The position numbers and the translations under genes are program-made. Shown here one piece after another: positions 18,361-60,953 of a stretch of DNA of 64,000 nucleotides. This stretch comes from Bacteroidota bacterium (GTDB lineage: Bacteria; Bacteroidota; Bacteroidia; Chitinophagales; BACL12), in NCBI GenBank assembly GCA_016706255.1, contig JADJJZ010000006.1:486022-550021 (forward strand), written 5' to 3'. The notes beneath the pieces were generated by a model. It searched no databases. It had not been told where the DNA came from and was given only the letters and a program-made list of their open reading frames with translations. Each line of letters starts with the position of its first letter. Within the stretch, counting starts at the first letter, position 1.

Positions 18361-18397
18361 AGCGAGTGCAAAGGTAGGGGTTTTTAGTAATATCGAC

Positions 18398-18475
18398 CAC
18401 CGCTATGCACGGTCTCCGACCACCCGCTATGCTTGGTCTCCGACCATGCATCAGAATCCGGGTCACCGACCCACT
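18398..18475. repeat. REP-like hairpin cluster (three GGTCTCCGACC-type modules)
   Basis: CCGCTATGCACGGTCTCCGACCACCCGCTATGCTTGGTCTCCGACCATGCATCAGAATCCGGGTCACCGACCC. Confidence 0.8.
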
Positions 18476-18499
18476 AAAAACAGAAAAGTAGTTGTTTAT

Positions 18500-18624
18500 C
18501 CATATTTGGAGCATCACCATCCCCCACGCCAACAAAATCCCTTCCGGTGCTCCGCTCCAAGTCCTCGTCGCCTCCACTGCGTTCCGGCTCCTGCGGGCTT
18601 TCCGCTACGCCCCGGGCTAGGTCA
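18500..18624 (-). repeat. GC-rich ~125-bp repeat, copy B (inverted relative to copy C)
   Basis: The reverse complement GACCTAGCCCGGGGCGTAGCGGAAAGCCCGCAGGAGCCGGAACGCAGTGGAGGCGACGAGGACTTGGAGCGGAGCACCGGAAG...GGCGTGGGGGATGGTGATGCTCCAAATATGG aligns along its length with 60787-60905. Confidence 0.8.
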
Positions 18625-18837
18625 CCTTTTTCAGTTGCTATCACAAAAACGATTTGTAAAAATTTAAGTAAAAAGTGACATTCAAATTATGGGAAAAAAA
18701 TAAAAATTATGGCTTGTAGGCATTTAAATTTAGAAAAAATGATATTTGAATTATCCAAAAATGTGACATTTTGTTTTTTCCTCAAAAATGCGTTTAACAA
18801 CAAAAATGATTTAATTGTGCTACCTTAAATTTGATAA

Positions 18838-19542
18838 ATGAAAAAGAATCTACAATCTGTTTACTGTGGTATAATTGCCCCAATAATTTTTGTGTTAATT
18901 TTTACAATTGAAGGTGCTTTTCGCGATAATTATTCACCAATAAAAAATTTTATTAGCGAATTATCCCTCGGAGAAAGAGGTTGGATTCAAATTGTCAATT
19001 TTTTAATATTTGGCTTTTTATTGTTTGTATTTAGTTTTCAATTAATAATCGATTTTCGCAAAACCAAGTTATCGGTTGCAGGGCCGGTTTTGCTTTTGAT
19101 TCTCTCCGTTTGTTTCTTTTTTTCCGGCCCGTTTGTAACCGACCCCAATACAATATTTGCAGATCAAAAAAGTATTCATGGGATAATCCATGGTGTTTTA
19201 GGAGGGTTAGTATTTTTAATTATTCCAATAAGTTTGTGGGTGTTTCTAAAACTATTCAAAAAAATAGCATATTTAAATCCATTAAAAAACGTAACCCTCT
19301 TTTTTGCTATAACTTCAACAATATTTTTTATCTGCTTTACCTATGTAACCAAAGTTCCTGCAGCGCAAAATATTTTTTCAAACTGTAATGGCCTGTTTCA
19401 ACGCTTTGCATTAATTCCTTTTATGGTTTGGGTTGTTTATTTTGCCTACTTTATAAAAAATAAAATGTCCCGCTATGCATGGTCTCCGACCATACATCCG
19501 AACAGCGGCCTCCCGACCGCTAAAATTAAATTTGATAAATAA
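18838..19542 (+). CDS. DUF998-like polytopic membrane protein
   Basis: 234 aa, 6-7 TM. The last ~24 codons are read from the REP-like element at 19469-19520. Confidence 0.55.
   Translation: MKKNLQSVYCGIIAPIIFVLIFTIEGAFRDNYSPIKNFISELSLGERGWIQIVNFLIFGFLLFVFSFQLIIDFRKTKLSVAGPVLLLILSVCFFFSGPFVTDPNTIFADQKSIHGIIHGVLGGLVFLIIPISLWVFLKLFKKIAYLNPLKNVTLFFAITSTIFFICFTYVTKVPAAQNIFSNCNGLFQRFALIPFMVWVVYFAYFIKNKMSRYAWSPTIHPNSGLPTAKIKFDK
19469..19520. repeat. REP-like double hairpin
   Basis: CCCGCTATGCATGGTCTCCGACCATACATCCGAACAGCGGCCTCCCGACCGC. Confidence 0.85.
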
Positions 19543-19575
19543 ATTTCATTATTTTTAAAAAAAGCATGAAACACT

Positions 19576-20013
19576 ATGGTTGATCCAAACATTGTATTCC
19601 CGATACTTGAGCTTACCGACTGGGTTTTCGAAGGTGAATGTGTTTATGAACTAGAAACTAAATGGGGTGGCCCATTTTATATAAAGGAAAATGAATTAGA
19701 AAAACATTTACAACGATTAATTATCGATAGTGAAGGAAAGGTTTTAAAAGTCACTTTTGAAAAAATAATCAGTAGAGAAACTACTATTTTTTCATTTTTT
19801 ATGCCAACAAAAAACCTTATGGAATTGAATTTGGAATTAACTGATAGAAAAATGACTTTAGATGAAGTTAAACGAAAAATCATCTCCAATACCGAAAAAA
19901 ATTTTATTATAAAACGTTATAAAGAAATTTCTGAAGCTGATTTTAATAATAAACTACGTGCAGCACCAAATTTTGTGAAATTATTCGAAATCGCATCAAT
20001 GGAGGATGAATAA
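19576..20013 (+). CDS. Hypothetical protein
   Basis: 145-aa ORF, no recognisable motif. Followed directly by a REP-like element. Confidence 0.45.
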   Translation: MVDPNIVFPILELTDWVFEGECVYELETKWGGPFYIKENELEKHLQRLIIDSEGKVLKVTFEKIISRETTIFSFFMPTKNLMELNLELTDRKMTLDEVKRKIISNTEKNFIIKRYKEISEADFNNKLRAAPNFVKLFEIASMEDE

Positions 20014-20025
20014 ATAGCATTAAAA

Positions 20026-20074
20026 GCTATGCATGGTCTCCGACCATGCATCCGAACCGCGGTCTCCCGACCGC
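20026..20074. repeat. REP-like double hairpin
   Basis: GCTATGCATGGTCTCCGACCATGCATCCGAACCGCGGTCTCCCGACCGC: a 10-bp perfect stem with TCC loop, then a 6-bp stem with TCCC loop. Confidence 0.9.
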
Positions 20075-20146
20075 TAGCTCCAATTCAACATATTCAAAAT
20101 AAAACCGCTAATTTGCAATCCCAATAACCCAAATAAAACCACCTCA

Positions 20147-20766: not shown

Positions 20767-21264
20767 ATGAAATTAACTGTACAAATCACGCGTCAGGAGT
20801 ATTATGAATTTACCAAGTACCATTTTTATCATACGCAGTTTAAAAAAAATGTAATATCAATGGTAATTATGGTTGCGGTACTCGAGATAGTATTAAGTCT
20901 AAATGGGTTTAATTTGTTTGCAACCATCATTTCAGTAATTGGTGCCGGCTTGTTTTATTATTTTGCAATTTCCAGAATTTTAAAAAGAGCTAAAAATGTT
21001 CCCGACAATGATGGAGCAATTTTGGGTGAAAATGTGTATACATTTAACGAAGAACAAATTCTGTTTAATTCCCAAAACTCAGAAGCTGTGCATCGCTGGC
21101 AGGTTATTAAAAGTTTCAAAGAAGCCGCCAAAGCATATTATTTGTTTATGGATTCCAACATGGCAATAGTAATCCCAAAACGCGTATTTAGCAACCCAGA
21201 GGAAGAAACTGAATTTAAAGCATTGGTTCAACGAAAATTACTATCAAATTTACAAACCCCATAA
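20767..21264 (+). CDS. YcxB-like membrane-anchored protein
   Basis: Two central TM helices followed by a C-terminal domain with ...AYYLFMDSNMAIVIPKRVF.... Confidence 0.55.
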   Translation: MKLTVQITRQEYYEFTKYHFYHTQFKKNVISMVIMVAVLEIVLSLNGFNLFATIISVIGAGLFYYFAISRILKRAKNVPDNDGAILGENVYTFNEEQILFNSQNSEAVHRWQVIKSFKEAAKAYYLFMDSNMAIVIPKRVFSNPEEETEFKALVQRKLLSNLQTP

Positions 21265-21277
21265 ATAAAATAAATAA

Positions 21278-21328
21278 CCCGCTATGCATGGTCTCCGACC
21301 ATGCATCCGAACCCGGGTCTCCCGACCC
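21278..21328. repeat. REP-like double hairpin
   Basis: CCCGCTATGCATGGTCTCCGACCATGCATCCGAACCCGGGTCTCCCGACCC. Confidence 0.9.
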
Positions 21329-21344
21329 TTAGCTCCTCACAAAA

Positions 21345-21797: not shown

Positions 21798-21822
21798 TTT
21801 TTAATTTATTTAAACAGGTGAT

Positions 21823-21870
21823 GCTATGCATGGTCTCCGACCATGCATCCGAACCGCGGTCTCCCGACCG
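21823..21870. repeat. REP-like double hairpin
   Basis: GCTATGCATGGTCTCCGACCATGCATCCGAACCGCGGTCTCCCGACCG. Confidence 0.9.
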
Positions 21871-21926
21871 TTAGGCAAATTACATTCAAATGCTTAAAAT
21901 TAGAATTATTGCACTCCCCATCATCC

Positions 21927-31449: not shown

Positions 31450-31492
31450 ATATTGTTGTGAGCGAATAGATAATGTACCAATTTCCGAATGT

Positions 31493-33069: not shown

Positions 33070-33095
33070 ACTACCCTTTCAAAACGCTATGCTGC

Positions 33096-33122
33096 ACCCT
33101 GTCGAAACGATAGGGTTTTTTA
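33096..33122 (+). terminator. Rho-independent terminator candidate
   Basis: ACCCTGTCG-AAA-CGATAGGGT followed by TTTTTT, 27 nt after the regulator stop. Confidence 0.5.
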
Positions 33123-33399: not shown

Positions 33400-33403
33400 T
33401 GCT

Positions 33404-35107: not shown

Positions 35108-35115
35108 TTATAGAT

Positions 35116-48340: not shown

Positions 48341-48471
48341 GCCTAACGTTATGCAGATTTGCGACGGCGGGTCAGGCAACCGAAAATCTTTAATAAAATA
48401 CGAAGTTTTAGGTTATCGAAAATTAATCTGAGGATGGCGTCGCCCCGCTGGCGCAAATGTGCTTGTTAGCG
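48341..48471 (-). repeat. attC-like site
   Basis: Minus strand: CGCTAAC-AAGCACATTTGCGCCAGCGGGG ... CCCGCCGTCGCAAATCTGCATAAC-GTTAGGC. The TAA stop of ORF 48466-48714 lies inside the inverse core. Confidence 0.85.
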
Positions 48472-48763
48472 GTTGTTTTTCTTGATTAAAATTCTTGCAA
48501 AATGCACCGCCATTATTATTAAGATTTGTATAGGTAAAGCAATAAAAAACACAGGCCCAGCAAATATAAAGGGAGAATTTTCATTATCAAAAATAAAGAG
48601 AGCCAAAGGATAACCAATATTCCAAACAAAATGATTTGGATCAGAGCCTGTATACCTAAATTGCGGCACATTAAATTCAGGATAAAAGTCTATAATCGCA
48701 AAAAATAATTGCAAAAATGATTAACCATTTTAACCAGGGCTTCCTTTTGCTTTTCACTATCAT
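48466..48763 (-). pseudogene. Cassette ORF: small membrane protein, one frameshift in a T-run
   Basis: MIVKSKRKPWLKWLIIFAIIF... joins the 82-aa ORF (…FAIIDFYPEF…) after a 1-nt shift. Confidence 0.5.
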
Positions 48764-48904
48764 ATTTTTAATTCTGCTTCTCTATACAAAATTGGATTTA
48801 ATTTATGTTTATTTGGTTAATAAAATAAATCTCCAATCGTCTCATTCGATTTGCCGTATTAGTTGAAGGATTCATTTCATAGTACCCATATTGTTCTGAA
48901 TTAC

Positions 48905-49036
48905 CGCTAACGTTTTGCAGCTACAAGAAGTTGGCGATTTCGGAGACGAAAACTGTCTGCCAGCACTGAACTTGATACGAAGCACAAAGCTTCATTTAAC
49001 CACTGAACCGCCAATTTCTTGTAGGTGCTGTTACAG
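48905..49036 (-). repeat. attC-like site
   Basis: Minus strand: CTGTAAC-AGCACCTACAAGAAATTGGCG ... CGCCAACTTCTTGTAGCTGCAAAAC-GTTAGCG. The central TTAAATGAAGCTTTGTGCTTCGTATCAA is shared with 56543-56672 and 57385-57515. Confidence 0.85.
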
Positions 49037-49215
49037 GCTGGCGTTTTTTCTGTCGTGGTTTTTCTGTCCATTGTTATTGTCGTTTTTTGTGCGTTGGTTA
49101 GAAAGCTCTTTTGCAATTTTAGGTTTGCGAGTCGCTTGTGCGAATTGCAAATGTGCTTTTGGAGCGAAGGACCTTCCAAAATATAATGGTTAGTTAATTT
49201 CTTTTGCAATATCAT

Positions 49216-49995
49216 TCAGCCAACCAGAAGAAATGGCATAGCGTCTAAGGCCAAGAATTCAATTTCAGAATTTTTAGAGTCAATTACAAAATTTCTTATT
49301 GTCGTTTCAATAGCTATTTTTTTATCTTGGTCATTGTCATAAGAAAGAGCAACGTCTCTTAAATGTTCTCTAAATCTATCTAAAAGACTCCGTCTATTGT
49401 CGTTTAAGTCCTTTCTATCAATTTTGCACTTTTCGATTGTATAAGCAAATCTCACATTATCAGATTCAATAATTCCATTAACTTGAAATCTAATTTCACC
49501 AGAAGAATCGGTTATTTCAGGATTCACCATTTTTGGCAACTCAACTAAATCATAACTAGCAGAACTATTATTAATACTTCGCAAATTAGCTTCAGTGTTA
49601 TTAAAAGTAACTGCGGTACCTTCTAATTCAAAATTCACACCTTTGTTTTGGTTACATGTCGGACAAGATAACATTAAGTTGTCCCAAGAGAATGCAAGCC
49701 AATAGTAAGTAGCTTTAGGTCTATAATGTTCAACGTGATATTGCTCAACTTTTTGCTCACAAAAAGCACATGTACCTTTATAGATTGAAGTTAATCCGCT
49801 GCGGATTTCGGCCAACTTATATCTATCATTAAAAGGGGAAGTATCATTGTATGCTCCCGCATTAATAACAGACATCCTTTTTTCATGGGTTGTTCTGGAT
49901 TTTATTGGGACTCTTACTTGTCCTGGAAATAGATCAATAAACGCAGGTATTAGAGAAGCGGGAATTGCTGTCAGGTCTTTTTCTAGCTTGATCAT
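49216..49995 (-). CDS. ptuB: HNH endonuclease, PtuB-like (TIGR02646-type)
   Basis: 259 aa. CAFCEQKVEQYHVEHYRPK ... WDNLMLSCPTCNQNKG HNH core. Its start overlaps the ATPase stop by 4 nt. Confidence 0.75.
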   Translation of the reverse strand: MIKLEKDLTAIPASLIPAFIDLFPGQVRVPIKSRTTHEKRMSVINAGAYNDTSPFNDRYKLAEIRSGLTSIYKGTCAFCEQKVEQYHVEHYRPKATYYWLAFSWDNLMLSCPTCNQNKGVNFELEGTAVTFNNTEANLRSINNSSASYDLVELPKMVNPEITDSSGEIRFQVNGIIESDNVRFAYTIEKCKIDRKDLNDNRRSLLDRFREHLRDVALSYDNDQDKKIAIETTIRNFVIDSKNSEIEFLALDAMPFLLVG

Positions 49996-51778
49996 TTTTT
50001 TCCTAATTCATCATTAATAATTCGTTGAATTAATTCATCTATTTCATCGTCTTTGATGAATCCCTTGCCAGCCGCTTTTTGCTTTTCAAGTTCAACTTCC
50101 AGTTTTTTATTAATCCTGTATAACAAATAAGTTTCACTTGTATCAGAATTATTATCCTCAGTATTCATTCTAGAATCATCTAATCCAAATAGCGGAGATG
50201 TTAGAAGTGAGTTAATCATCAAATGATCTAAATTTTTGCGTAAATAAGGATCACTCACTCTCGTTTTACCGTCTTCTTTGTTTCGATAAACTCTAAACAT
50301 AATTGCATCTTCAGATGCTCCTTGAATGATTGTTGGGCTATGAGTAGTGAAAATAAACTGAACATTTGGAAATAGTTTTCTCAATTTGCCAATTATTACT
50401 CTTTGCCATTTTGGATGTAAGTGTAAATCAATTTCGTCTAATAAAACTATACCCTTTAAATCTGTAGGCGTATTTCCTTCGCCAGCATTTTTATTCAATC
50501 TATATAACAAGTCAGACACAAAAATTAAGATACTTTTGTAACCTTCCGATAGTTGATCAAATGTCAGAATCGTTCCTTTCTCCTTAAAAGTTACACCGCT
50601 TCCTTCGATCTTTATTTCAACATTTTTTTCCAATAAATCGAAAAACATTTTTTCAAGTAGTTCGACAGGGAATGAATTTGGTAGTTCTTTAATTTCACCA
50701 ATTGAATTATTTGCATCAAGATTTTTTTCTAGTTCTAATAATTTTTGGTCTTTTAACCATGAAACGGGATTCACTAGTGTTTGCTCGCTATCGAAAAGCG
50801 ACATAAAACCATATTCTTCTGGTTTATCAGTAGAATATCTTCCCGATGAGTTCCATAAGCAAAGAAATTATTCAAAATATTCCCTTTTTTGGGATTGTAT
50901 TCTTGGCCTTTATCATCAACACCAGACAGTCTGATGTTTTTATTATTTCTTATAATATCTGCGGCTTTTCCCGTTCCTTCAAGATCTGTCTTTTCGGTGA
51001 TAGAGTTTCCGTTAAAGGCAAGATAAATTCCCATCAGTATTAAAGATTTCCCATCTCCATTTTCTCCTAAGAAATAAATCTCCTTTGCTTTGTTGAAATT
51101 CAGATTTGTTTCTTCAACCGAAAAGAAGTCAGCAATCTCGACTTTTTCTATATAATTACTTTCATTGTCAATTACACCCTCCAGCCAAGACCTAAATTGA
51201 TCTTCAGAAATACTTAGGGCTTTATGGAAATTATTTGAAAAACATATTCTATAAAAATCATCGTCTCCGATTGCAACATTTGTAAACCTTGAGATGCGCT
51301 CAAGTAAAACTTGTTTAAAAAGTTTACCGACATTCGTGTTCTGTAATATTGGAGTAAAATCGTATGGAACATCTTGTGTACGCCTGTAAATAGGTTTAGC
51401 TGCCCCAGATTCTATTAATGCACTTCTAATATTTGTATATTGTTTCCCTGACTCGATTTTAAAAACACCTTTCATATCCCCAGTAGAATACTTCGAGGCG
51501 AATTCATCAACGATTTCCCCATGTGTAAAAAGTGTTGCGAATAAAGCAAAGAGTTTTTTTTCGTTAGGGTAATTCTGAATTTCAATCCAATAGCTTGGAA
51601 TAGGATCTTCAAGTGAATTAATTCCAAGAAAAGATTTAAGAATAGCTTCGTTAATAATAGCTTTTTTGCTTTTGAAATCTTCTATTATTTGCAAGCTTTC
51701 TATCACTTCCATAACTTGGACAATATCATACTTTGTCCAAGATGTTCTTTGTCTTTTGAAATCAACTTCAATACTCAT
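49992..51778 (-). pseudogene. ptuA: PtuA-like ABC/AAA_15-21-type ATPase with a ~220-aa uncharacterised N-terminal domain; one frameshift
   Basis: Walker A FLGENGDGKSLIL (ORF 50774-51778). Q-loop region, Walker B plus signature VLLDEIDLHLHP and THSPTIIQ (ORF 49992-50804). The frames join near the G-run at about 50855 (…AYGTH / GRYSTDKPEEYGFMSLFDSE…). Confidence 0.75.
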
Positions 51779-51781
51779 GAC

Positions 51782-53015
51782 TTATTTGCGTTTTGCGATT
51801 ATAAGATACTCTTGAACACTTCTACTTTTATCATCTTTTCTACCCATTATGTGTGTTTATATGCAACTTCTTTATAGTCTACATCATAATTATTACCCAG
51901 ATTCTTTTTAGCAATATCAATAATTTCATCTAAACTAATCATCCCCGTATTGCTATAGCTTAAAATTAAACTTGAGTTCTTAATTTTAATTTTTGCAAAC
52001 ATTTTTGCAAAAGCAGGTTTCACTTCTGTTCTCTTGCAGAAAGGGGATTGATGTCGATCTGATACCGACCTTTAAAATCAACTTCTGGATAATCATATTT
52101 TACTAATGTTTCCAACGCATGATAAAATCTTGAATAGTGGACGAAAGCATATGGCGGATCAGCATATACCAAAGAATTGGGTTCAATTTGGTCGAGACAT
52201 TCAAGATAATCTAACGATGTAACCTTATGATTTAAATTGTTCTTATCAAGATAGCCATGCAATATTTTGAACTTATTTATGAAATAAGGCAACATTTCCT
52301 TTTGTCTATAAATTAGAATGTCTGTCTTTGATGACAAGTTTGTCGCATCACGATATTGTGCATAATGACCCGTACTTTGAGAATTATATGACATCGCAAA
52401 CATTAGACTAGAGGATAACATAATGTAAAGGTGTATTTTTATATTCGTCAGCGACTTTACGAAGTGCATCTATCCATAAGCATTGCTGATACGACCAGTA
52501 AGTTCCAGAATAATATTTAATGAAAAGATGGTGTGATAAATTACCAAAATTAAATTCCATTAAATCTTGCTGTTGTTTTTCCAGTTCTACAAATTCTTTT
52601 ATCGTTTTCTTTTCTGAATAGGAAAAAACAAAATCGGGATATTTTTTTTTGACGGATTTTACATATTTAGTAGCCTTTTCAACAATTTCATCTAATATAT
52701 TTGATGGATATTTATCCCACTCGTAATTCGATAAATATGTATTTGCAGTATTGCCGAATATTCTTGAATGTCGTTGGAATGAATAGGAATTAACTTTCCT
52801 AATGCCCCTGATAAAATACTTGTTCCACCAAATAAGTCACACAACTTACCTTCTCGATATGTATCATTAATTGATTCTATAACAAAATCTAAGATATTTC
52901 TTTTTGATCCCATATATTTTATAATATGAGGAACACTCCTGTCGTATTTAGAAAGTAAATCAGGTTTCAAATTTCCTTCTAGAATTATAATGTCTAATGT
53001 TGCTGCTCTGCTCAT
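51782..53015 (-). pseudogene. DNA adenine methyltransferase (D12/Dam family), at least 3 frame disruptions
   Basis: N-terminal YMGSKRNIL and DLFGGTSILSG (SAM site), VYADPPY catalytic motif, and C-terminal ...ILSYSNTGMISLDEI...VQEYLIIAKRK in a third frame. The stop is 4 nt before the ATPase ATG. Confidence 0.8.
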
Positions 53016-53020
53016 TGTTT

Positions 53021-53242
53021 TTATTGAGTGTATTCTAATCTTTGTAGGAAAAGTGGTTCCCTCACATCAACATCTAGAACTTCTGCGATTTCAAAAAGTG
53101 TTTCCATTGTCGGTTGCATTTGGTTTGTACACCACTTAGAAACTGTAGTCCTGTTTTTGCCTAATTCTTCAGCAAGCCAGTTATTGGTTTTTCCCTGTTC
53201 CGCTAAAACAGCTTTAATCCGATTACACGCCTTTTTCTTCAT
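53021..53242 (-). CDS. XRE-family HTH regulator (controller-protein-like)
   Basis: 73 aa. ...KTNNWLAEELGKNRTTVSKWCTNQMQPTMETLFEIAEVLDVDV.... The stop is 6 nt before the methyltransferase start. Confidence 0.75.
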   Translation of the reverse strand: MKKKACNRIKAVLAEQGKTNNWLAEELGKNRTTVSKWCTNQMQPTMETLFEIAEVLDVDVREPLFLQRLEYTQ

Positions 53243-53265
53243 AAAAGAAGTCTTTTACATTAATT

Positions 53266-53286
53266 ATTCTGCAAAATAAGCAGAAT
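53266..53286. promoter_or_regulatory. Candidate operator (C-box-like inverted repeat)
   Basis: ATTCTGC-AAAATAA-GCAGAAT, 24-44 nt upstream of the HTH gene start. Confidence 0.4.
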
Positions 53287-53370
53287 CTGACAACTCTATT
53301 TTGTTCACATTCAGTCTAAAAGCTAAATAATATGCTTAATTAGTATCATAATTCGTCTATTGAGCATAAA

Positions 53371-53676
53371 ATGAATATTTTGAAAAAAATAAAGACTTGT
53401 TTAAAAGTCTATCGCAACAAAAAAATGCTCTTTATGAAAGCTAAGAACAAGAAAAAACTTATTCTATCTCTGATCAAAGATGATTTAATAAATGCCAAGC
53501 TAGTAAATGGTTTGAATGAGATCGGTCTGAATGCAGATAATTATTCTCTGCACCTGAGCGATACAATTTTTAACCTCATGAGATTTGAGGATAACGAGGA
53601 AACGGAAACAACTTTCGAACGATATATGGAGTTGGCTAAAGAGATCAATGTTCATAGATATTTCACAGTCTCATAA
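53371..53676 (+). CDS. Hypothetical protein (only plus-strand ORF in the cassette region)
   Basis: 101-aa ORF. Probable start at an internal Met (MLFMKAKNKKK...). Confidence 0.4.
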   Translation: MNILKKIKTCLKVYRNKKMLFMKAKNKKKLILSLIKDDLINAKLVNGLNEIGLNADNYSLHLSDTIFNLMRFEDNEETETTFERYMELAKEINVHRYFTVS

Positions 53677-54320
53677 GCCTATGGATGATTTAGCTTTACA
53701 AATTTATACTGAAATATTGTCTCGAAAGCCCAATGATTAATATTATTGCGGGTGGGTGATTTGGCTCTTTTGATTTTGCCTTTTGTGTCGGCTCGTGCGT
53801 TGGGGGCAAAAGCAAATGTGCCAAATGTGTGTCGGCAAAGTCGAAATGTGTCGGGTTGCAATAAATTGTCTACGGAGATAAAATAAACATTTTTGTCGGA
53901 ATGTAAGTCGCCCGATTTTTAGTAGGAATTGTCAAGGTTGCACTGTCGTCCGACGCTTGCCCTATAACTTGATTATTTGAGAAGTGTTCCCCAAAAAACC
54001 TCTCCAAATCCTACTTCAGTGCTTGAATCAGTAGGTTTAACTTTTTAAAACTACCTCTTATTTTTTTATTCAACCATTTAATAGCTACAAATTAATTTGA
54101 CCTTAATCCGAAATGTTTTACCACCTCAACGCATTCAACCCTACCACATCTTTCAATCTCTAATCCTGGAGCTAAATGCTTTATCAGTATTTTAAAAAAT
54201 TACCGCTCCAAATTCACGGAAAACCGTTAATCTTAAAATGTCACATTTTTAAAATTACGAACGCAATAAAATCAATACTTTTGGGCAAATGGGATTCATT
54301 TTCGCCACTTTACCATGTCA

Positions 54321-54432
54321 CACTGAAGTAGAAGCTGTTTTTTGCACCGCAAAAAATCCACTTCACTTAAAATAGAACATTTATCCTTCCAACTTTACTT
54401 AAGTGGCAGCAAAAAACAGCTTCACTTTAGTG
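54321..54432. other. Long imperfect hairpin in the ORF-free zone
   Basis: CACTGAAGTAGAAGCTGTTTTTTGC (54321-54345) pairs with GCAAAAAACAGCTTCACTTTAGTG (54409-54432) with 1 mismatch and 1 bulge. An inner 6-bp stem CCACTT/AAGTGG is also present. Confidence 0.6.
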
Positions 54433-54804
54433 CAAGCACTCAACCCTTTTCATTCCAATAATATTCCCGATTTCTATTTATTTCCATGCATCTTCATCTT
54501 TCTTTATATTTTAAAGAAACTTTCGAAGACTCCGTCGAAGTTTATGGGTTCAAGATGCTCATCATTAAACTCGGTAATGTCATCAATTTTATTTGTCGTG
54601 TTAAATAATACAATGTCCCAGCTCATATTACTGTAATTTTTGAATTTGTTAAAAATGGCACAGTCGTTTTTTTATTTGTCACTTGAAATTTCTTCTCTAT
54701 CTATTAATCCTTCTTTATTCGTTGGCTCTTCTTCGTTAGCAGATCTATCAAATAAATTTCTTAGTCTTCTAATTTGCCTTTGCCTATTAAAAGTTTCATC
54801 ACAG

Positions 54805-55241
54805 CTAAGTTGGTAAAAAAGCTAATATCCAAATTCCGATTGTTGATAAAGTTGACAAGCCATAAGCTGCAGAAATCATGCTAATCAACATAAATGAAAT
54901 AAATCCGAGCCATGAATAATAACTTGCTTGTTTAGATTTTAAAACATAACCGTCATCTCTAAAATTTTGCCTTACAGCAAAGGAAACCAAATAAAAAAGA
55001 ATAGATTTTTTTGAAGGAAATTCAAGTCATCAACAATGTTATATCTAATGCGTTTGACTGCTTTCTCAATTTGGTCGTTTTTATAATTTTTAATATCGTC
55101 CTCTGAAACATTTCTTTTTGATATTTCTTCTAAAGCAACAGTTACTGCTGTTTCGGTATAGCTAAATTTTTCATCAAGAATTTCTAATAACTCTTGAGTT
55201 GAAAGTTTTGAATAAGTTTCTTGTAATTCTTCTCGTGTCAT
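54805..55241 (-). pseudogene. Cassette ORF: membrane-anchored hypothetical, one frameshift
   Basis: ORFs 54972-55241 and 54805-54990 join across an A/T run (…DDLNFLQK / …VSFAVRQNFRDDGYV…). Confidence 0.5.
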
Positions 55242-55342
55242 AATAAAATGGTTAACTTTTGGAGCTAAAGAAAGTGCATAATAAAAACTTCCTAACTGTC
55301 TAATTGAACTAAAGGTATAAAATGTTCCAAGTTCATCGCAAG

Positions 55343-55420
55343 TGCAAACAGTGTCTTACCGCTGAAAATTTGCGCATGCAATTTACACTTACCTCCGCAT
55401 TTTTTTAGCCTGCGTTACCA
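55343..55420 (-). repeat. attC-like site (short)
   Basis: Minus strand: TGGTAAC-GCAGGCTAAAAAAATGCGG ... GCGCAAATTTTCAGCGGTAAGACACT-GTTTGCA. It starts 1 nt after the stop of the upstream ORF. Confidence 0.4.
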
Positions 55421-55421
55421 G

Positions 55422-56013
55422 CTAACGTTTATTTTTTCTAGCGTCTGCTCGCATTCCTAATTCCATTTCAAGTTGTGCTTGCCAAAATCCGTCTTCGGAT
55501 GTTGTTCGGTTGTCAGCAAGTTTCAACCTTTGTTTTAGTGTTTCAAATTGTTCGTCAGTAAAGTTGGAGTTTATGAAAGCGTCTTCGCCATTTTCTTTTT
55601 GAACAGTTAAAACAAAGTCTCGGTAAATTATTAAACAATTTGTCAACGTCTTGATAGAACAATTAAAAAACCGAGATGAAAAATAATCTTCGTGGTCAAG
55701 CCATTCTATTTCGTCATTTTGTCTGTATTAATAACTATCGCGTCACCGTCAGCGCATGAACCAATTACTACATACTTTTCGTATTCAGATTCAAGAAAGT
55801 CGTATTGGGTAGTCAGTTTATTTATACCTTCATAAAGATCATTGGTGTTTTTGCAAACGATAAAAACGGTGCTGCCTCAACCGGTAGTCCAATGTTGGTT
55901 AAAAAGTCTATTGTGTCAGGCTTGAGATTTAAGTTTCTAAGACTGTCTTTGTCGATTGGAGAAAGCTTGTCGCCTGTTGATGTCCAAATATTTTTAAATT
56001 GGTCTGAAGTCAT
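55422..56013 (-). pseudogene. Cassette ORF: SUKH-superfamily (SUKH-4-like) immunity-type protein, multiple frameshifts
   Basis: ...FLTNIGLPVEAAPFLSF..., ...YVVIGSCADGDAIVINTD..., ...WLDHEDYFSS... and the C-terminal ORF 55422-55646 lie in different frames. ATG is 11 nt after the core at 56025-56031. Confidence 0.55.
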
Positions 56014-56024
56014 TTTACGCTTGC

Positions 56025-56154
56025 TGTTAACGTTTGCGTTTCTGCAGCGGTGACTTTCGAAGCCGCGGCCTGTCCCACGAAACAAAAGTGTTGAACGAAG
56101 ATAAAACTTTAAATCAACAGGTCACAGCACCAATGCAGAAACATACTGTTATAC
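56025..56154 (-). repeat. attC-like site
   Basis: Minus strand: GTATAAC-AGTATGTTTCTGCATTGGTGCTGTGAC ... GTCACCGCTGCAGAAACGCAAAC-GTTAACA. Confidence 0.8.
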
Positions 56155-56348
56155 GCAGTTAATTTATACGTCCCACTTGTTTTGAAACTTGTATATACTT
56201 GTCAGACATTATAAAATCTACACAGTCGTTAATCATTTGTCTTAGAGTCCTTTTTCATTTTCAATTATTTTTGTCCCCAGTCCGCACCATTTATTGCAGA
56301 AATAATTTTTGATTCTAACGCTGACCGAATTCCTATTTCTTTTTTTGT

Positions 56349-56531
56349 CTAGTAGCAAACTTCAGGGTAAGGCAAATTGTCGCGTTTCTCTAAGTATGCT
56401 TTTTGCACAAATTCTATTTCAAAAATTTTAGATTCTTTGTCCATCATTAACAATGTCACTGAACCACCGTCCATCCAAGCATGAACCTCCTCAATAGTCA
56501 ATTGTCCTGTAGGGTTGAATAATCTATCCAT
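56349..56531 (-). CDS. Cassette ORF (hypothetical)
   Basis: 60 aa. ATG is 11 nt after the core at 56543-56549. The TAG stop is followed by 27 further sense codons in frame. Confidence 0.4.
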   Translation of the reverse strand: MDRLFNPTGQLTIEEVHAWMDGGSVTLLMMDKESKIFEIEFVQKAYLEKRDNLPYPEVCY

Positions 56532-56542
56532 ATATTAATCAA

Positions 56543-56672
56543 GCACGACGTTTTGGCGCTTGACGAAAAAGCGGATTTCGAATCACTAAATTGTCTGGCA
56601 GCCCTATTTGATACGAAGCACAAAGCTACATTTAAGTAAAGAACCCACTTTTTTGCCAAATGCAGGATATGT
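56543..56672 (-). repeat. attC-like site (inverse core degenerate)
   Basis: Aligns along its length with 57385-57515 (…TTAAATGTAGCTTTGTGCTTCGTATCAA…GCCAGAC…AAATCCGCTTTTTCGTCAAGCGCCAAAAC-GTCGTGC). Confidence 0.6.
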
Positions 56673-56676
56673 GCCT

Positions 56677-57375
56677 CTATTCGTTGCATATGTCAATTAT
56701 TTTATGACTTTTTTGTTTCCAAGTATTTGTCCTTATGTTAAGTTGGTAAATGTGTTCACCTAAACCACAAACGCCTGCAGGCACGTACGTAATCAAAGTG
56801 TTGCTCTTATTTTTTATTTTTGACGGAAAATAAGTCATTGAGTCCGTCAAGAATTTATTTAAAGTGAATTTATTGTCTATGCCTTGCAAGTAATAGCTAT
56901 AAAATGTCCCACCATTTCCACCAGAATCATTGATTACTGCTATGTCGTCTTTATTATCAAAGTTTAGGTCAGCAACTATTAGGTCGCCATAATAATTATC
57001 AACTACTTCTTTGTCGAGATTAATTTTGGTAGAGTATGAAATAACATTTTTACAGTTCATAAAAACGTCCCTGAAATAAAAGTGCGAGCTTACTGATATA
57101 TTATCAATCACTTTCTTTGTGGTCTTGTCTGTAAGGAACAATTTAACAATACAGGAGTCATGATGCTCTTTGGAATTTGTGTGTCGCTCAAAATTAACTT
57201 TAATGTCAAACTGTTCAGATAGGTTCAAGTGCTCACACGCTGTACTTGTAAAGGAATCGTATATTGACATAGGTTTAGTCATAGAAATTATTGAATCAGT
57301 ATTTTCAAACTGTTTAGATTGTTTTGTTGAACAACTGTAAATTAATATTGTTAATATGAATAGTGTTTGTTTCAT
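56677..57375 (-). CDS. Cassette ORF: lipoprotein with FG-GAP/VCBS-like motif
   Basis: MKQTLFILTILIYSC lipobox starts 9 nt after the core at 57385-57391. DLNFDNKDDIAVINDSGGNGG motif. The ORF-track start at 57465 lies inside the attC-like site and is probably spurious. Confidence 0.6.
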   Translation of the reverse strand: MKQTLFILTILIYSCSTKQSKQFENTDSIISMTKPMSIYDSFTSTACEHLNLSEQFDIKVNFERHTNSKEHHDSCIVKLFLTDKTTKKVIDNISVSSHFYFRDVFMNCKNVISYSTKINLDKEVVDNYYGDLIVADLNFDNKDDIAVINDSGGNGGTFYSYYLQGIDNKFTLNKFLTDSMTYFPSKIKNKSNTLITYVPAGVCGLGEHIYQLNIRTNTWKQKSHKIIDICNE

Positions 57376-57384
57376 TTTAGTGGC

Positions 57385-57515
57385 ACATAACGTTTTGGCA
57401 CTTAGCACAAAAGCGGATTTAGAAGCACTGAATAGTCTGCCGGCACTTACCTTACTAACAAGCACAAAGCTTCATTTAACCGCTGATCCCGCTTTTTGCT
57501 AAGCGCCTGTTAGGG
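57385..57515 (-). repeat. attC-like site
   Basis: Minus strand: CCCTAAC-AGGCGCTTAGCAAAAAGCGGG ... CCGCTTTTGTGCTAAGTGCCAAAAC-GTTATGT. Confidence 0.85.
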
Positions 57516-57575
57516 TAGGTTTTATAAATACAAAATTTATATTAGAAAATAAGGCTGGGTCTTGAATTGCAATCA

Positions 57576-57819
57576 TTACAACTCAGATTTTTCCCAGAAA
57601 ATTTCTAATTCATTATTAGCGCAAAATGCTCTTTCAAGTATGTTCACCAACTCATTATCTGCTCCGTTCTCACGGAATGTTCAATATGCTTAGGTCTAAC
57701 CAATATTCCTGATCATCTTTACTTTCTTCCTCAAGTTGATCAATTAGAAATTGTAACTGCATTTCATTAATTAAGCCAATTTCCTGGTTTGTCTCTTTGT
57801 TTTTTAATTTGTACATCAT
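57576..57819 (-). pseudogene. Cassette ORF: small acidic protein, one frameshift
   Basis: MMYKLKNKETNQEIGLINEMQLQFLIDQLEEESKDDQEYWLDLSILN then a shift to ...ENGADNELVNILERAF..NNELEIFWEKSEL. Confidence 0.5.
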
Positions 57820-57968
57820 TAAATTAGATTTTAAAATTATTGTTTGTTTCGTTTTTTAGAGTGGTCTCTGGACTCCACTATTATTGTTTGTGGAAAATTA
57901 AATTCATGAATTGTCGATCTGAATTGTTAGTCGAATATTTCTTGCCTCAATATGTCTTTTAAATTTGC

Positions 57969-58097
57969 ACTTAACGTTTGTGTTTATGACGGCAGGTTTT
58001 CGAAGAGCGTCACTGCCCCATTTTGCTGAACGAAATTAAGAAAACAAAACTTAAAACCTACACATCACCCCAAGCTGGCATAAACATTTTGTTACCT
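57969..58097 (-). repeat. attC-like site
   Basis: Minus strand: AGGTAAC-AAAATGTTTATGCCAGC ... CCTGCCGTCATAAACACAAAC-GTTAAGT. Confidence 0.8.
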
Positions 58098-58110
58098 GCT
58101 GTTTCTAGCA

Positions 58111-58763
58111 CTACCAAAATTTCCAAAAAGGTCTTTTGTCGTCCTTTATTTCCGATAATATTTGAACAACTCTTTCTTCCCCCCAATCCTGGTCATCAGG
58201 TATCTTCTTCCAGTCAATATCTTTTATTTCTATCCGTTCATCGGCTGACCCCGACCAATCAACTTTGAATCCATTCTTCCTTAGTTTTCAATAATTTTTT
58301 GCTATCAGAATCGCTTCATTGTTCTCCTCAGCTGTTAAAGCCAAGATACAAGCTCCTTGATTCTGGATCAACCGCTCTTCCCAAATCTTGAGAATGATAA
58401 TAGCAAAAACCTACTGCTTTAATTCCAAGCTCATCAAGTCTCTCTATTGTCTCCATACAATCTTCCTCACCGTCTGATCTTGTAAAACCCCACATTGTGC
58501 AAACAAACAATTCTTTCAGATATAAGCTCATCGAATATTTTAGCAAGCCGTTCGAAGTCGGTAGGATGTGTCCAGTGAAGACTTTCACTTTGATGTTTTG
58601 AATACCTATCCGATATTTTATCTTAAACCAAACCCTCGTCAAAATCACTTTCGTCATAAAACATTTCTCGAATACTTTCAAAAGTTCGTCTTCATTCTCA
58701 AAGCCAAACTTTATGTCGAGCTCTAATTGGTCAATGGCTTCTTTCTTTATTTCACTCTGTCAT
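58111..58763 (-). pseudogene. Cassette ORF: DUF6891-like (immunity-type) protein, several frameshifts
   Basis: ...GFTRSDGEEDCMETIERLDELGIKAVGFCYYHSQDLGRAVDPESRSLYLGF... then ...AEENNEAILIAK... and ...KNGFKVDWSGSADERIEIKDIDWKK... in other frames. Confidence 0.5.
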
Positions 58764-58789
58764 ATCTAGTGGCTAATCAATGAAATAGC

Positions 58790-58922
58790 TGGTAACGTTA
58801 TAGATTTGCGATAGACGGGCGGTTTTCCATTACAAATGTTCATTCTAAGATACAAACTTTCTGTAACCACAAAACCGTTCAGGAGCGGTAAGCCCCGCCT
58901 ACGTTAAAATGTGCTGTTATGC
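58790..58922 (-). repeat. attC-like site
   Basis: Minus strand: GCATAAC-AGCACATTTTAACGTAGGCGGGG ... CCGCCCGTCTATCGCAAATCTATAAC-GTTACCA. Confidence 0.8.
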
Positions 58923-58932
58923 GTAGTAGTCC

Positions 58933-59319
58933 TCAGTCCCGATTGGCGTCAATTATTTTTTTAACGAATTCTCTTCCATTAGTCAAACTTTCATCACCTC
59001 GAAATTCACTTGTTTCGATTGTTCCGTCATTAAAGACTTCTATTTCGAGTCTTGCCCCAACAATTGTTACACAAATCATTACGGAATTGTCTCTGGTACG
59101 TTCTAATTGATAGTAAATTTTGGCGCTGTCAAGTTCTTCCAATATCTAATAGAGTGGGTGATTGCTTTTGATGGTTTTCAGTTTCTTTATTATAAAACCA
59201 ATCACATAGTCTGGCTGAGTAGTAATGGAAAGGTCTTTGTTTTTGACAAGCTCTTTCAAAGCCTTCTCAACAGTTTTCCACTCTTTCAAAGATTTATATT
59301 CAACGTATGGTGACTTCAT
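58933..59319 (-). pseudogene. Cassette ORF (hypothetical) with an in-frame TAG, or two short ORFs
   Basis: MKSPYVEYKSLKEWKTVEKALKEL...SNHPLY-TAG(59146-59148)-ILEELDSAKIYYQLER...; a continuous frame of 128 codons. Confidence 0.45.
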
Positions 59320-59359
59320 GATTTACAATTTATTCGGATACGGATGGTCTTCCTTTACG

Positions 59360-59491
59360 CGCTAACGGTTTGCGGCTACCCGAAGGGCGGGACATTTACC
59401 ACAAAACTTGATTTTGAAAACTAATGTTTGATTAACCACAAAACTGTCCTTGGAACACAAAACCCCGCCTTTTGGGTAGGTGCTGTTATGC
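59360..59491 (-). repeat. attC-like site
   Basis: Minus strand: GCATAAC-AGCACCTACCCAAAAGGCGGGG ... CCCGCCCTTCGGGTAGCCGCAAACC-GTTAGCG. Confidence 0.85.
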
Positions 59492-59602
59492 GTATGGCGT
59501 TTCTGTTCTGTCATAGTAAGTTTGTTCTATCATTGCTGTCCTTAATTTCTCATATTTTTCTTTAAGTTCTTTTGGTGGTTCTTGACCACAACAATATCTC
59601 AT
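59486..59602 (-). CDS. Cassette micro-ORF (38 aa)
   Basis: MRYCCGQEPPKELKEKYEKLRTAMIEQTYYDRTETPYA. The TAA stop is embedded in the inverse core GCATAAC. Confidence 0.35.
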   Translation of the reverse strand: MRYCCGQEPPKELKEKYEKLRTAMIEQTYYDRTETPYA

Positions 59603-59637
59603 TTTTCTTGTCGTAATTTGTCAAACTCTACTTTTAG

Positions 59638-59728
59638 GTCGCTACGTTGTGGAAATAAATAATTCTTGAATTTGTATTAATGTGTCCGCCAAATTCTGTG
59701 CAGAGTAATAAACTGTCACGTTAGCTAA
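59638..59728 (-). repeat. attC-like site (short, degenerate)
   Basis: Minus strand: TAGCTAAC-GTGACAG ... TTCCACAAC-GTAGCGAC. The GTT core has lost one T. Confidence 0.35.
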
Positions 59729-60174
59729 ACTGTATTCTTTTGCTTTTCAAGTTCTTGCAACTGAATTTTTAATTGTCCGATTATATTATAGAAGTCGTAA
59801 ATTAAGTTTATTGAGTCAGAGGAAAGGTAAAGCATATTGTCTGCAATGTCTGTGTGGCATTTGCTTACAGAATTGTCAAACTTTTTCAATGCGTCATTTA
59901 TACAAGAAGTGTCAACACACGTTCCTGATAATGAAACGTGCAATTGTTGAACATCAAAAAGTATTTTGGATAAAGAAGCATAAACTTTTTTCTCCTGTTC
60001 ACGAATATCGTCTTTGGATTTATACTGCAAATCGAGATTTTTTTCGATTCTCTTTAATTGTCGGTTATTGCGATTTGTTAACCACAATATTCCCAATGGC
60101 AGAAATACGCCAGTCAAAATAATATTTACAAGGCCAGGGTTATTGTCAAGAATGTGTTTGAGTGTTTCGTTCAT
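59725..60174 (-). CDS. Cassette ORF: N-terminal TM plus coiled-coil protein (hypothetical)
   Basis: 149 aa, intact. TM helix LVNIILTGVFLPLGILWL. Starts 5 nt after the stop of ORF 60179-60553. Confidence 0.5.
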   Translation of the reverse strand: MNETLKHILDNNPGLVNIILTGVFLPLGILWLTNRNNRQLKRIEKNLDLQYKSKDDIREQEKKVYASLSKILFDVQQLHVSLSGTCVDTSCINDALKKFDNSVSKCHTDIADNMLYLSSDSINLIYDFYNIIGQLKIQLQELEKQKNTV

Positions 60175-60178
60175 TGGT

Positions 60179-60553
60179 TTAAATATTTTTTCTGCGAATT
60201 ACTGACCACCTCGGTTCAGGCACCATTTCAAAATCTTTGCTATGCGTTAAAAAGTAAAATGTCATTTCCGTTGAGCCAATATTTGTTATTCGTATTAAAG
60301 TCATTCCGTTTAATAAATGGTCGTGACAATTTTGACTTGATACTTTTAATTTATTCCAAGAAATACTATTGTCGGCTGTACCTTTTATTTCATAATTCTC
60401 AACAACACCATTTATTGAAGTTGAAAGGTCAATTCCGTTTCGATTTGTAATAAAAGTGGTCGTGCCATTTATTGAAAAGAAATACAACTTTGCTATTTCA
60501 ACTGCCAATTTACCAACGCCGCTTTTTTTTTCCAGTGTTTGATAAAGTGTCAC
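60179..60553 (-). CDS. Cassette ORF: small PD-(D/E)xK-like (DUF3883-like) protein
   Basis: 124 aa, intact, GTG start. ...NGIDLST...ENYEIKGT... fits D...ExK spacing. Confidence 0.4.
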   Translation of the reverse strand: MTLYQTLEKKSGVGKLAVEIAKLYFFSINGTTTFITNRNGIDLSTSINGVVENYEIKGTADNSISWNKLKVSSQNCHDHLLNGMTLIRITNIGSTEMTFYFLTHSKDFEMVPEPRWSVIRRKNI

Positions 60554-60786
60554 AAGCCGTTAAGTTGGTCTTGAGTTATTGAAAAAATTATGTGTCGTCA
60601 TTTTGTTCTGTTGTCTTTACGCTTACGCATAACAATATATTTGCGAATATACAAAATTCCAAAATACGAATCTGAAATACAACTCATTGATTATCAATAA
60701 TAAAAATTGTAGTTTTTTGGATATACAAATTGAAGTAAGTTGCGCAAAGCCGTTTTGGCAAGTTGTAATAGGGCCTCAAAAGTTTA

Positions 60787-60905
60787 ACCTAGCCGGGCCG
60801 CAAAAGAAAAGCCCGCAGACCTGAGGAACGAAGGGACGAGGACTTGGAGCGGAGGGCCGGCAGCGATGTTGTGGGTGTGGGGGATGTTGATGCTTCAAAT
60901 TCAGG
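60787..60905 (+). repeat. GC-rich ~125-bp repeat, copy C
   Basis: ACCTAGCCGGGCCGCAAAAGAAAAGCCCGCAGACCTGAGGAACGAAGGGACGAGGACTTGGAGCGGAGGGCCGGCAGCG...GGGTGTGGGGGATGTTGATGCTTCAAATTCAGG. Inverted homologue of 18500-18624. Confidence 0.8.
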
Positions 60906-60953
60906 ATATTACCATATTGTCGAGCAGTCGCACGCCGTCTACTATTACGGCGG

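Follow-up and report, generated by a model that had tools for sequence, protein, structure and literature searches.

The panC-panD spacer of a Chitinophagales lineage: probably a composite, long-lived plasticity zone framed by inverted Flavo-1 relatives

The 42.5-kb block (18361-60900) that separates panC (pantoate-beta-alanine ligase) from panD (aspartate 1-decarboxylase) in a Chitinophagales metagenome-assembled genome (MAG) is, in our reading, a composite, lineage-specific expansion of the spacer between these two genes. It would then be a long-lived plasticity zone of one Chitinophagales clade, with no single mobile element behind it, and we put the probability of this reading at about 70%. 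The block was studied in a 64,000-nt stretch of DNA, the window, which is part of a 1,147,475-bp contig; designations such as L110 refer to the comparison loci that we fetched. Both genes lie on the minus strand, and the block is bracketed by two inverted repeats, R1 beside panD and R2 beside panC, which belong to the family of Flavo-1 (RF01705), a motif proposed in 2010 to be a structured RNA of Bacteroidetes (Weinberg et al. 2010, PMC2864571).

Results

Origin and age of the split

Gene order was counted in 80 Bacteroidota loci fetched around relatives of PanD. In 70 of the 80, panC lies directly upstream of panD, usually with a divergent GlgA-like gene beyond panC. A more distant Chitinophagales MAG (L110/L111, PanC 55% identical) has GlmS-BamH-GlgA on one strand, followed by panC, a methyltransferase gene and panD-LPG_synthase-cytidylyltransferase-acyl-CoA dehydrogenase. 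The methyltransferase gene, on the opposite strand, is the sole gene between panC and panD there, and a scan of this near-empty site with the custom covariance model described below found no Flavo-1 copy; the site shows no insertion footprint either. The same genes flank the block in the window, where Pfam finds Glyco_transf_5 (GlgA-like) and DUF4270 (now named BamH) on the panC side and LPG_synthase_TM (UPF0104), a cytidylyltransferase and an acyl-CoA dehydrogenase on the panD side. Since both flanks of the window are contiguous in L110 and adjacency is found in 70 of the 80 loci, the 42.5 kb must be a derived expansion of the panC-panD spacer, and gene order shows that the two core flanks were once contiguous.

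A preliminary description of this DNA had called an adjacent panC-panD pair with these neighbours normal (glycogen-synthase-like and DUF4270 genes on one side, UPF0104 and RfaE-like genes on the other), and both the adjacency and the neighbours are borne out. Its position for panD (18010-18360, minus strand) holds an intact gene. For panC, given as 60954-61749 on the minus strand, the gene and strand were right and the end was not, as the frame that starts at 61749 runs to a TGA stop at 60901-60903. This became clear when the three frames of the gene were reassembled and compared with the intact orthologue of L094 (97.5% DNA identity); panC of the window carries two 1-nt frameshifts, both within G/C runs. 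L094 and 25 protein clusters of the same species have an intact 282-aa PanC, and a protein identical to the PanD of the window occurs on at least 23 metagenome and MAG contigs.

The split is shared by relatives at several distances. Other neighbours for panC or panD are found in L109 (PanC 64% identical), L097-L099 (81%), L096 (about 92%) and L100-L105 (94%), and likewise in L001 (PanD 91%), L006 and the more distant L043, L058 and L060. Because lineages with 64-94% PanC identity have the split with other contents, it is old and not recent, and a hotspot at this position has evidently been kept over considerable divergence (PanC 64-97%).

The block is a composite

Comparison of the contigs reveals that the sub-segments of the block (Table 1) differ in phylogenetic depth, with a conserved part near panD, a middle part with the kdp genes and an insertion sequence (IS), and a strain-hypervariable part near panC. 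Ten same-species contigs cover the left side; they come from ENA metagenomes and two NCBI MAGs. The stretch 18.4-25.2 kb, from panD and R1 through DUF998 to the M24 peptidase and MFS transporter genes, is 97-99% identical in the same-species contigs L081-L089 as far as they reach. The L081 contig differs from the window by one 3.1-kb, three-gene indel, and the flanking alignment blocks overlap at a copy of the repeat D2 (21261-21336). The D2 copies consist of two GC-rich hairpins (ATGCATGGTCTCCGACCATGCAT and GCGGTCTCCCGACCGC) and are placed between small genes next to panD. The next part of the block, with the sensor kinase, the gene for a 247-aa protein and the MFS transporter (31498-24790 in the window), corresponds to 11019-17724 of the sister-species locus L096 at 89.6% identity. 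In L096 the sensor kinase segment begins about 180 nt after panC, in the same orientation as in the window. This locus is without 31.5-60.86 kb of the window, and thus without the kdp regulon and IS remnant (31.5-43.3 kb).

Table 1. Positions of the core borders, repeats and segments of the block in the window
Feature	Position	Strand	Remarks
panD (aspartate 1-decarboxylase)	18010-18360	-	Intact; Pfam PF02261 Asp_decarbox, 171.8 bits; left core border
panC (pantoate-beta-alanine ligase)	60901-61749	-	Pfam PF02569; right core border
R1, Flavo-1 family, long central hairpin	18504-18623	-	144 nt upstream of panD, same strand as panD
R2, Flavo-1 family	60786-60900	+	Begins at the base after the panC stop, antisense to panC; degraded by a 5-nt deletion
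R3, canonical Flavo-1	15193-15298	+	Between acyl-CoA dehydrogenase and DUF2807 genes, outside the block
Species-conserved left segment	18838-27069		DUF998, 145-aa open reading frame (ORF), Tpt1/KptA, YcxB, 150-aa ORF, type IX secretion system (T9SS) C-terminal-tail protein, M24 peptidase, MFS transporter, 247-aa ORF (Pfam)
D2, REP-like double-hairpin repeat, 5 copies	18406-18481, 19452-19527, 20006-20081, 21261-21336, 21803-21878		Repeat search
Hybrid two-component sensor kinase with AraC domain, 1376 aa	27319-31449	+	Pfam
Dispersed repeat, 156 nt, families D3/D6/D7	31492-31647		Direct pair with 43285-43440 (94%); brackets the kdp/IS segment
Dispersed repeat, second 156-nt copy, family D3	43285-43440		Repeat search
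kdp regulon	31702-41535	+	NtrC-type sigma-54 activator, kdpA, kdpB (3 ORF pieces), kdpC (2 pieces), BBP2 porin, KdpD sensor domain, histidine kinase (3 pieces); Pfam
Degraded IS4/IS5-type insertion sequence	41900-43150	-	DDE domain about 42069-42552; six-frame Pfam, PF01609, E=2.5e-14
Integron-like cassette array	48344-60632	-	Nine attC-like elements with small ORFs between
Nine attC-like elements	59492-59422, 58923-58793, 58099-57972, 57515-57388, 56675-56546, 56155-56028, 55422-55253, 49035-48908, 48473-48344	-	Features checked by hand
Conserved stretch of about 155 nt between R2 and the array	60633-60785	-	Ends ...AATATATTG|TTA

These distributions do not agree with two earlier statements, that everything between panC and panD is accessory and that it forms one inserted block. 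The segment at 18.8-25.2 kb is present in every same-species contig that reaches it and 24.8-31.5 kb recurs in the sister species at about 90% identity; the parts differ in their distribution, and the split itself is old, with other contents elsewhere. Signs of mobility or inversion at the block were not found either. Its GC content of 31-39% is no anomaly against the 34-41% of the panD-side flank (window about 36%), there is no tRNA anywhere in the window, the ends of the block have no integrase or transposase and no target-site duplication, and no inverted form occurs in about 25 independent junction contigs. An integrative genomic island is thus not what we see, as an integrase and a tRNA are absent from the window, the flanking repeats are inverted and not direct, and the composition is not deviant. 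In the ORF-poor zones a six-frame Pfam search returned nothing beyond a DDE transposase fragment, DUF6891, an HTH domain and the ATPase tail of a kinase. Four proteins (GlgA-like, KdpA, HNH and the T9SS protein of 613 aa) were searched for exact matches and had none, owing to strain differences or the choice of start codon.

An integron-like cassette array next to panC

On sequence evidence, the hypervariable part has the build of an integron cassette array without an adjacent integrase, of the type called CALIN (cluster of attC sites lacking an integrase), which IntegronFinder defines by at least two attC sites that share a strand and are separated by less than 4 kb (PMC4889954). Seven attC-like elements lie in 59.5-55.25 kb and two in 49.0-48.3 kb, all on the minus strand and recognised by their features, not by a curated attC covariance model; the array probably continues down to about 44.5 kb. 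An attC site has inverted cores (RYYYAAC...GTTRRRY), forms an imperfect palindrome of variable sequence with conserved structure, and is 57-141 nt long. The elements have this architecture, being imperfect palindromes of about 130 nt with YAAC/GTTA cores, and the match to the core consensus is strict for its AAC and GTT parts only. Each cassette is closed by one element of the form ..YAAC-arm-centre-arm'-AAAAC-GTTA. When three elements of other strains are added (L106:10870-10990, L107:8190-8316 and L094:105-232), 10 of the 12 are 128-132 nt long (7 of the 9 in the window and all 3 in the other strains). Their arms differ in sequence from one element to another yet pair within the element, and the pairing beats at least 292 of 300 shuffles in 6 of the 12; element E8 folds with z=-4.2. 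In 5 of 8 window cassettes and in L094, the cassette additionally opens with 8-9 nt that match the reverse complement of the closing element's 5' end with no more than one mismatch, and the cassette start of L107 is complementary with a one-base indel (per-site chance about 0.005). A fold based on a MAFFT alignment of the elements had misaligned the arms and predicted no pairs, and the tests of arm pairing and of cassette starts, element by element, were used instead.

The ORFs of the array encode proteins of 124 and 149 aa, a DUF6891 protein, a 262-aa protein and a homologue of the product of a 193-aa gene (Pfam). A longer stretch at 49216-53254 holds an HNH gene, a split AAA_21/AAA_15 ATPase, a split Dam methylase and an HTH gene.

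The array begins at one exact point. The window, L094, L100, L106, L107 and L108 share the conserved stretch next to R2 and all diverge at the same nucleotide near 60633/60632 in the multiple alignment (BLAST breakpoints 60630-60631). Because all strains part at this one point, a fixed G|TT joint about 270 nt downstream of panC, the end of the conserved stretch acts as an attI-like insertion point for the first cassette. A sigma-70-like hexamer pair at 60662-60634, which a promoter scan found as a weak match to the consensus, is directed into the array. The first slot is filled in five different ways, with defence systems in three: two small ORFs (124 and 149 aa) in the window, a 201-aa secreted protein in L094, a DEAD-helicase/phosphoribosyltransferase protein with a DprA-like protein in L106, AAA_21 with RloB in L107 and L108, and, in L100-L105, an ImmA/IrrE-HTH protein, DUF3368, a radical SAM protein, UDG, Shedu SduA, a kinase and a Mu-like transposase. 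Further downstream the strains rejoin at common cassettes, such as that of the 193-aa gene (55255-54479 in the window). In three strains with three different upstream neighbours the joint to this cassette is exactly RTTA|(A/T)CCATTTT, and L106 and L107 have internal segments of the array in common, with their order kept.

The border repeats as divergent relatives of Flavo-1

The arms of R1 and R2 that align without gaps (18504-18574 and 60830-60900) are 71 nt long and 85% complementary, and with gaps the match extends to about 120 nt. The window holds exactly two occurrences of a 26-nt core, CCGGNNCTCCGCTCCAAGTCCTCGTC, one on each strand, where 100 shuffles gave an expectation of 0. The panC-side repeat, undamaged in other strains, aligns there gaplessly with R1 over 138-143 nt (86%), and the similarity of R1 to it reaches 18646. 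A metagenome scan for a 20-nt repeat core returned five contigs, two of them true panC-side copies, which gave junction variants, and three unrelated. The repeats have 59-66% GC, compared with 31-41% for nearly all of the window. The preliminary description was therefore accurate on several counts: GC-rich inverted repeats of about 120 bp mark both edges of the block, and the third, diverged copy it placed at 15195-15300 is R3, a Flavo-1 copy that passes the family threshold. The repeats are also conserved at these borders in other species. The description fell short in treating the repeat as a special marker, as this is a diverged member of a dispersed family.

Membership in the family was assessed with the Rfam model RF01705, whose gathering threshold is 42 bits, and with a custom covariance model built from an alignment of R1, five R2 orthologues, R3 and two canonical copies of sister species. 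R3 passes the Rfam threshold with 53.8 bits (15194-15266) and scores 82.5 bits with the custom model. R1 stays below the cutoff with 26.3 bits (E=0.002 in a 501-nt search) and scores 136.7 bits with the custom model. The R2 copy of the window has no RF01705 match at E<=10 and the intact R2 of L094 none at E<=0.1; with the custom model R2 reaches 79.4 bits in the window and 130-140 bits in the intact orthologues of L092, L094, L100 and L106-L108. The alignment nevertheless shows one family, with a common CTAGCCCGG, an AGCGGAAA box, the central hairpin, a TTGxAGCGGAG box and CCGGAA. R1, R2, R3 and the canonical copies have in common an outer CCGG/CCGG stem, two AGCGGA-type boxes and covarying inner stems, and the main difference is a central hairpin that is 13-14 nt longer in R1 and R2 than in the canonical copies. 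The conserved element also runs about 35 nt past the 3' end of the Rfam model. The consensus fold of eight copies has 11 pairs, 5 of them with compensatory changes (RNAalifold), in an alignment that is small and partly redundant. The alignment identifies R1 and R2 as homologous but divergent Flavo-1 relatives. A role of R2 as a terminator was also considered and dropped, as there is no terminator-like site in 60400-61000.

The same frame is found around unrelated contents. Among other species, L001 is nearest on the panD side. It has a canonical Flavo-1 copy (58.4 bits) on the panD strand, 104 nt upstream of panD by the custom model, in the manner of R1. Beyond it stands a defence island (L001:234-9246) with AbiEi/AbiEii, a TOTE-type archaeo-eukaryotic primase fused to a helicase, an HNH protein and a PLD-helicase-DUF3427 protein. 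In L097-L099 a canonical copy with 46.3 bits, above the cutoff, follows panC after 33 nt in antisense orientation, as R2 does, with unrelated genes next to it. The L100 species has an R2 of the long-hairpin type, L096 has only the outer 60 nt of R2 left, and R1 is present in all same-species contigs examined. Since the two borders carry Flavo-1 in the same orientations in sister species with unrelated contents, the inverted pair is older than the present contents of the island. R1 and the R2 of its own species differ at 13-15 of 120 positions, and 16-21 differences separate them from the R2 of the L100 species, which weakly suggests occasional gene conversion. Concerted evolution of the pair was considered on the same distance matrix and set aside, the distances being suggestive only. 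The bases just outside the arms belong to the inverted match and form no direct repeats, so no target-site duplication is seen there.

Short-read assemblies tend to break near both borders. The L090 contig ends at position 18744 of the window, 120 nt inside R1, and most panC contigs (clusters P0001-P0025) are only 1-13 kb long, which is consistent with strain heterogeneity at the edges of the island.

Sequence quality

From 1 to 35 kb all genes of the window are intact and the alignment to short-read contigs is gapless. From about 35 to 63 kb most of the longer genes are broken, namely kdpB, kdpC, the histidine kinase, the AAA ATPase, the Dam methylase, the DUF6891 gene, panC and, outside the block, the GlgA-like gene. 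We first read these as genuine pseudogenes and set this aside in favour of long-read consensus errors, which are probably the better explanation, by odds of somewhat over two to one. The 1.15-Mb contig points to a long-read assembly, and consensus error is made more likely by this, by the position of the panC indels in G/C runs, by the fact that core genes are hit and by the intact genes in same-species short-read assemblies. Not all of the differences are homopolymer changes; the 193-aa gene, for instance, has a 10-nt deletion.

Discussion

Weighing the composite reading

Several points weigh against our reading of the block as a composite plasticity zone with an integron-like array. No single independent contig spans the block, and same-species continuity across 25-60 kb comes from one 1.15-Mb long-read contig and partial overlaps. 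The attC-like elements were identified by features checked by hand. The complementarity of cassette start and 5' core fails in 3 of the 8 window cassettes and also in L100 and L106. No integrase was found, as PF00589 has no match in the window among all long ORFs and six-frame fragments of 41.5-49 kb and 53-60.9 kb. For the Flavo-1 borders, the chance argument given below is based on about 64 kb and flanks. Finally, L109 has the split with no Flavo-1 beside panC and L110 has neither, so that either the split or the repeats may have come first.

It could be that the two flanking copies are coincidental, Flavo-1 being an abundant intergenic repeat that has no link to the island. The motif is indeed widespread and dispersed, the window is rich in other repeat families, and all three of its Flavo-1 copies lie in ordinary intergenic DNA. 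In the transcriptome of Flavobacterium psychrophilum, Flavo-1 matches are sense, antisense and outside transcribed regions and give no clue to function (PMC9723704), a pattern that suits a repeat dispersed at the DNA level no less than it suits an RNA gene. However, the window has only 3 copies in about 55 intergenic regions, which gives a chance of about 0.2% that both borders are occupied. The border copies are the most similar pair, and their positions and orientations recur in sister species as canonical copies. In 1.73 Mb of fetched loci the custom model found convincing copies only upstream of panD, downstream of panC and at the R3 site, in addition to a truncated panC-side remnant in L096 and three weak matches of 17-26 bits. 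Given this low density, occupancy of both borders is not expected by chance, and we consider a coincidence unlikely.

A functional role for the pair is a tentative idea to which we give low odds. R1 and R2 may be border elements of a recombination hotspot that frame an integrase-less cassette platform, and they could direct recombination, as a DNA site or as RNA, or shield panC and panD from transcription that leaves the island. If true, this would be the first functional context for an orphan motif.

Another possibility is that the block or its ancestor was one mobile element, transposon-like, with the Flavo-1-like repeats of 120-143 nt as terminal inverted repeats and a cargo that was remodelled later. 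The inverted repeats are exactly at both ends, and their outer ends abut the panC stop and face panD. R1 and R2 are also mutually closest, with arms 85-89% identical and the hairpin expansion unique to them, and the near-empty L110 locus, free of Flavo-1, implies that the repeats arose in the lineage with the large insertions. Against this, the only DDE fragment is that of the internal IS remnant, and the ends are devoid of the recombinase genes, duplicated target sites and deviant composition that such an element might be expected to leave. L109 has the split without Flavo-1, Flavo-1 also occurs solo (R3), and the contents vary piecewise among relatives and are never present or absent as a unit. 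We find such an element very improbable.

The repeats might also make the 42-kb segment invertible, or the split might have been made by successive inversions, through homologous or site-specific recombination. They are inverted and 86-89% identical over 120-143 nt, and the smaller distance of R1 to its own species' R2 is compatible with gene conversion, but the difference in distance rests on few sites. All ten left-junction contigs read panD-R1-DUF998 and all of the 12 or more right-junction contigs read panC-R2-conserved stretch-cassettes, with no hybrid junction and one orientation only. The sensor kinase-247 aa-MFS segment of L096 is in unchanged orientation, no invertase gene was found in the window, and a single inversion would put panC and panD on opposite strands, where they are on the same strand here. 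There is little to recommend inversion, and we regard it as highly improbable.

That the block is a chimeric join in a long-read metagenome assembly is barely conceivable. In its favour, the contig is long, 35-63 kb is full of frameshifts even in core genes, and near both borders the short-read contigs end. Against it, many independent assemblies show both junctions. In L096 panC is linked to the sensor kinase-MFS segment and in L081-L086 MFS is linked to panD, so that order and orientation are bridged, and L106 and L107 have internal array segments in matching order.

A possible history

Returning to the composite plasticity zone, its history may have run as follows. Flavo-1 copies would have settled early in the two new intergenic regions, or would have come with the first insertion. 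The pair may then have stayed in place as a passive frame during the turnover of the DNA between, which would have run by cassette recombination through an integrase encoded elsewhere and also by IS activity and homologous recombination between dispersed repeats. New cassettes join at the one fixed point downstream of panC.

Comparison with known systems

The panC side is closest to CALIN and sedentary chromosomal integrons (Cury et al. 2016, PMC4889954; 10.1101/2024.07.02.601686). Like these it has co-oriented short cassettes of about 0.2-1.2 kb, imperfect palindromes of about 130 nt with YAAC/GTTA cores, a G|TT crossover and cassette starts complementary to their own 5' core. Site length is uniform, as in sedentary integrons, and in other strains the first slot carries defence genes (AAA_21 with RloB, helicase-phosphoribosyltransferase with DprA, Shedu); chromosomal integron arrays are known to store defence systems (10.1101/2024.07.02.601686). 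Unlike in integrons, it is panC and a Flavo-1 copy, and no intI, that adjoin the fixed insertion point, and some of the slots are filled by multi-gene systems or, in L100, by a 10-kb island with a Mu-like transposase. Its host, a Chitinophagales MAG, belongs to Bacteroidota, where integrons are reported (PMC8618304) but little studied.

The rAID-1 arrays of Bacteroidales (Ross et al., bioRxiv 10.1101/471110) are similar in their host phylum, in their strain-variable, small and mostly unannotated genes and in intergenic repeats reminiscent of integrons. As for homology to immunity genes, the analysis covered one DUF6891 and one DUF5071 match. However, rAID-1 has a conserved XerD-family recombinase at one end and skewed GC, neither of which is seen here, and membership in rAID-1 was rejected on these two grounds. 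With defence-island and genomic-island hotspots the locus shares fixed core flanks, sharp boundaries and variable contents (AbiE and TOTE in L001, Shedu in L100, RloB in L107). It differs from them in splitting a two-gene biosynthetic pair, in being framed by inverted structured repeats and in its persistence over 64-97% PanC identity.

As for the repeats, the likeness to Flavo-1 lies in the copies at R3, L001 and L097 that pass the threshold, in the alignment of R1 and R2 throughout and in the Bacteroidota host; R1 and R2 differ by the longer hairpin, the high GC and scores below the cutoff. To our knowledge, Flavo-1 has not been described at the borders of an island so far. Flavo-1 also resembles the REP/REPIN repeats in being short, structured, dispersed and intergenic, and the inverted R1 and R2 recall a REP doublet parted by insertions. 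Unlike for REP/REPIN, no RAYT-type transposase or closely spaced doublets are seen here, and a derivation of R1 and R2 from a REP-type doublet is speculation by analogy.

The locus is instructive as a further instance of a hotspot type that is already known, and not a new mechanism; it does not overturn current ideas, and its value is that of a well-delimited case. The near-empty ancestral site documents how, in an uncultured Chitinophagales lineage from wastewater, a biosynthetic gene pair became a lasting hotspot where accessory and defence genes collect. For a phylum whose integrons are hardly studied, the array adds an integron-type structure that has no integrase beside it and whose defence cassettes are strain-specific. 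Flavo-1, conserved and inverted at both borders of a variable region, gains a testable genomic context and thus a lead.

Additional observations

The regulatory set of the kdp regulon is unusual, with the NtrC-type sigma-54 activator upstream, a stand-alone KdpD sensor/Usp protein and a separate HAMP-PAS histidine kinase as the last gene; the BBP2 (OmpL-like) porin sits between kdpC and the KdpD sensor/Usp protein. Further pieces of the 156-nt repeat family that brackets this segment are found at 43186-43222 and 43395-43605, and a related sequence lies between sodA and glmS at L106:1981-2233.

Outside the block, about 1 kb from R3, the region between DUF2807 and nuoN (about 14100-14234) is a small variable spot. 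Other strains of the species have extra genes there, which in L081:14344-17902 encode an 876-aa T9SS-tail protein and a 308-aa protein; the window and L083 are without them, and L006 differs in this region too. Within the nuoA-N operon, a 10-nt unit (ATTGAACAAA or a variant of it, in either orientation) is repeated in tandem arrays at 5759-5892, 6018-6056, 7150-7211 and 7815-7852, and these flank nuoH and a gene of the 23S_rRNA_IVP (four-helix bundle) family (7341-7730) that is inserted between nuoH and nuoI.

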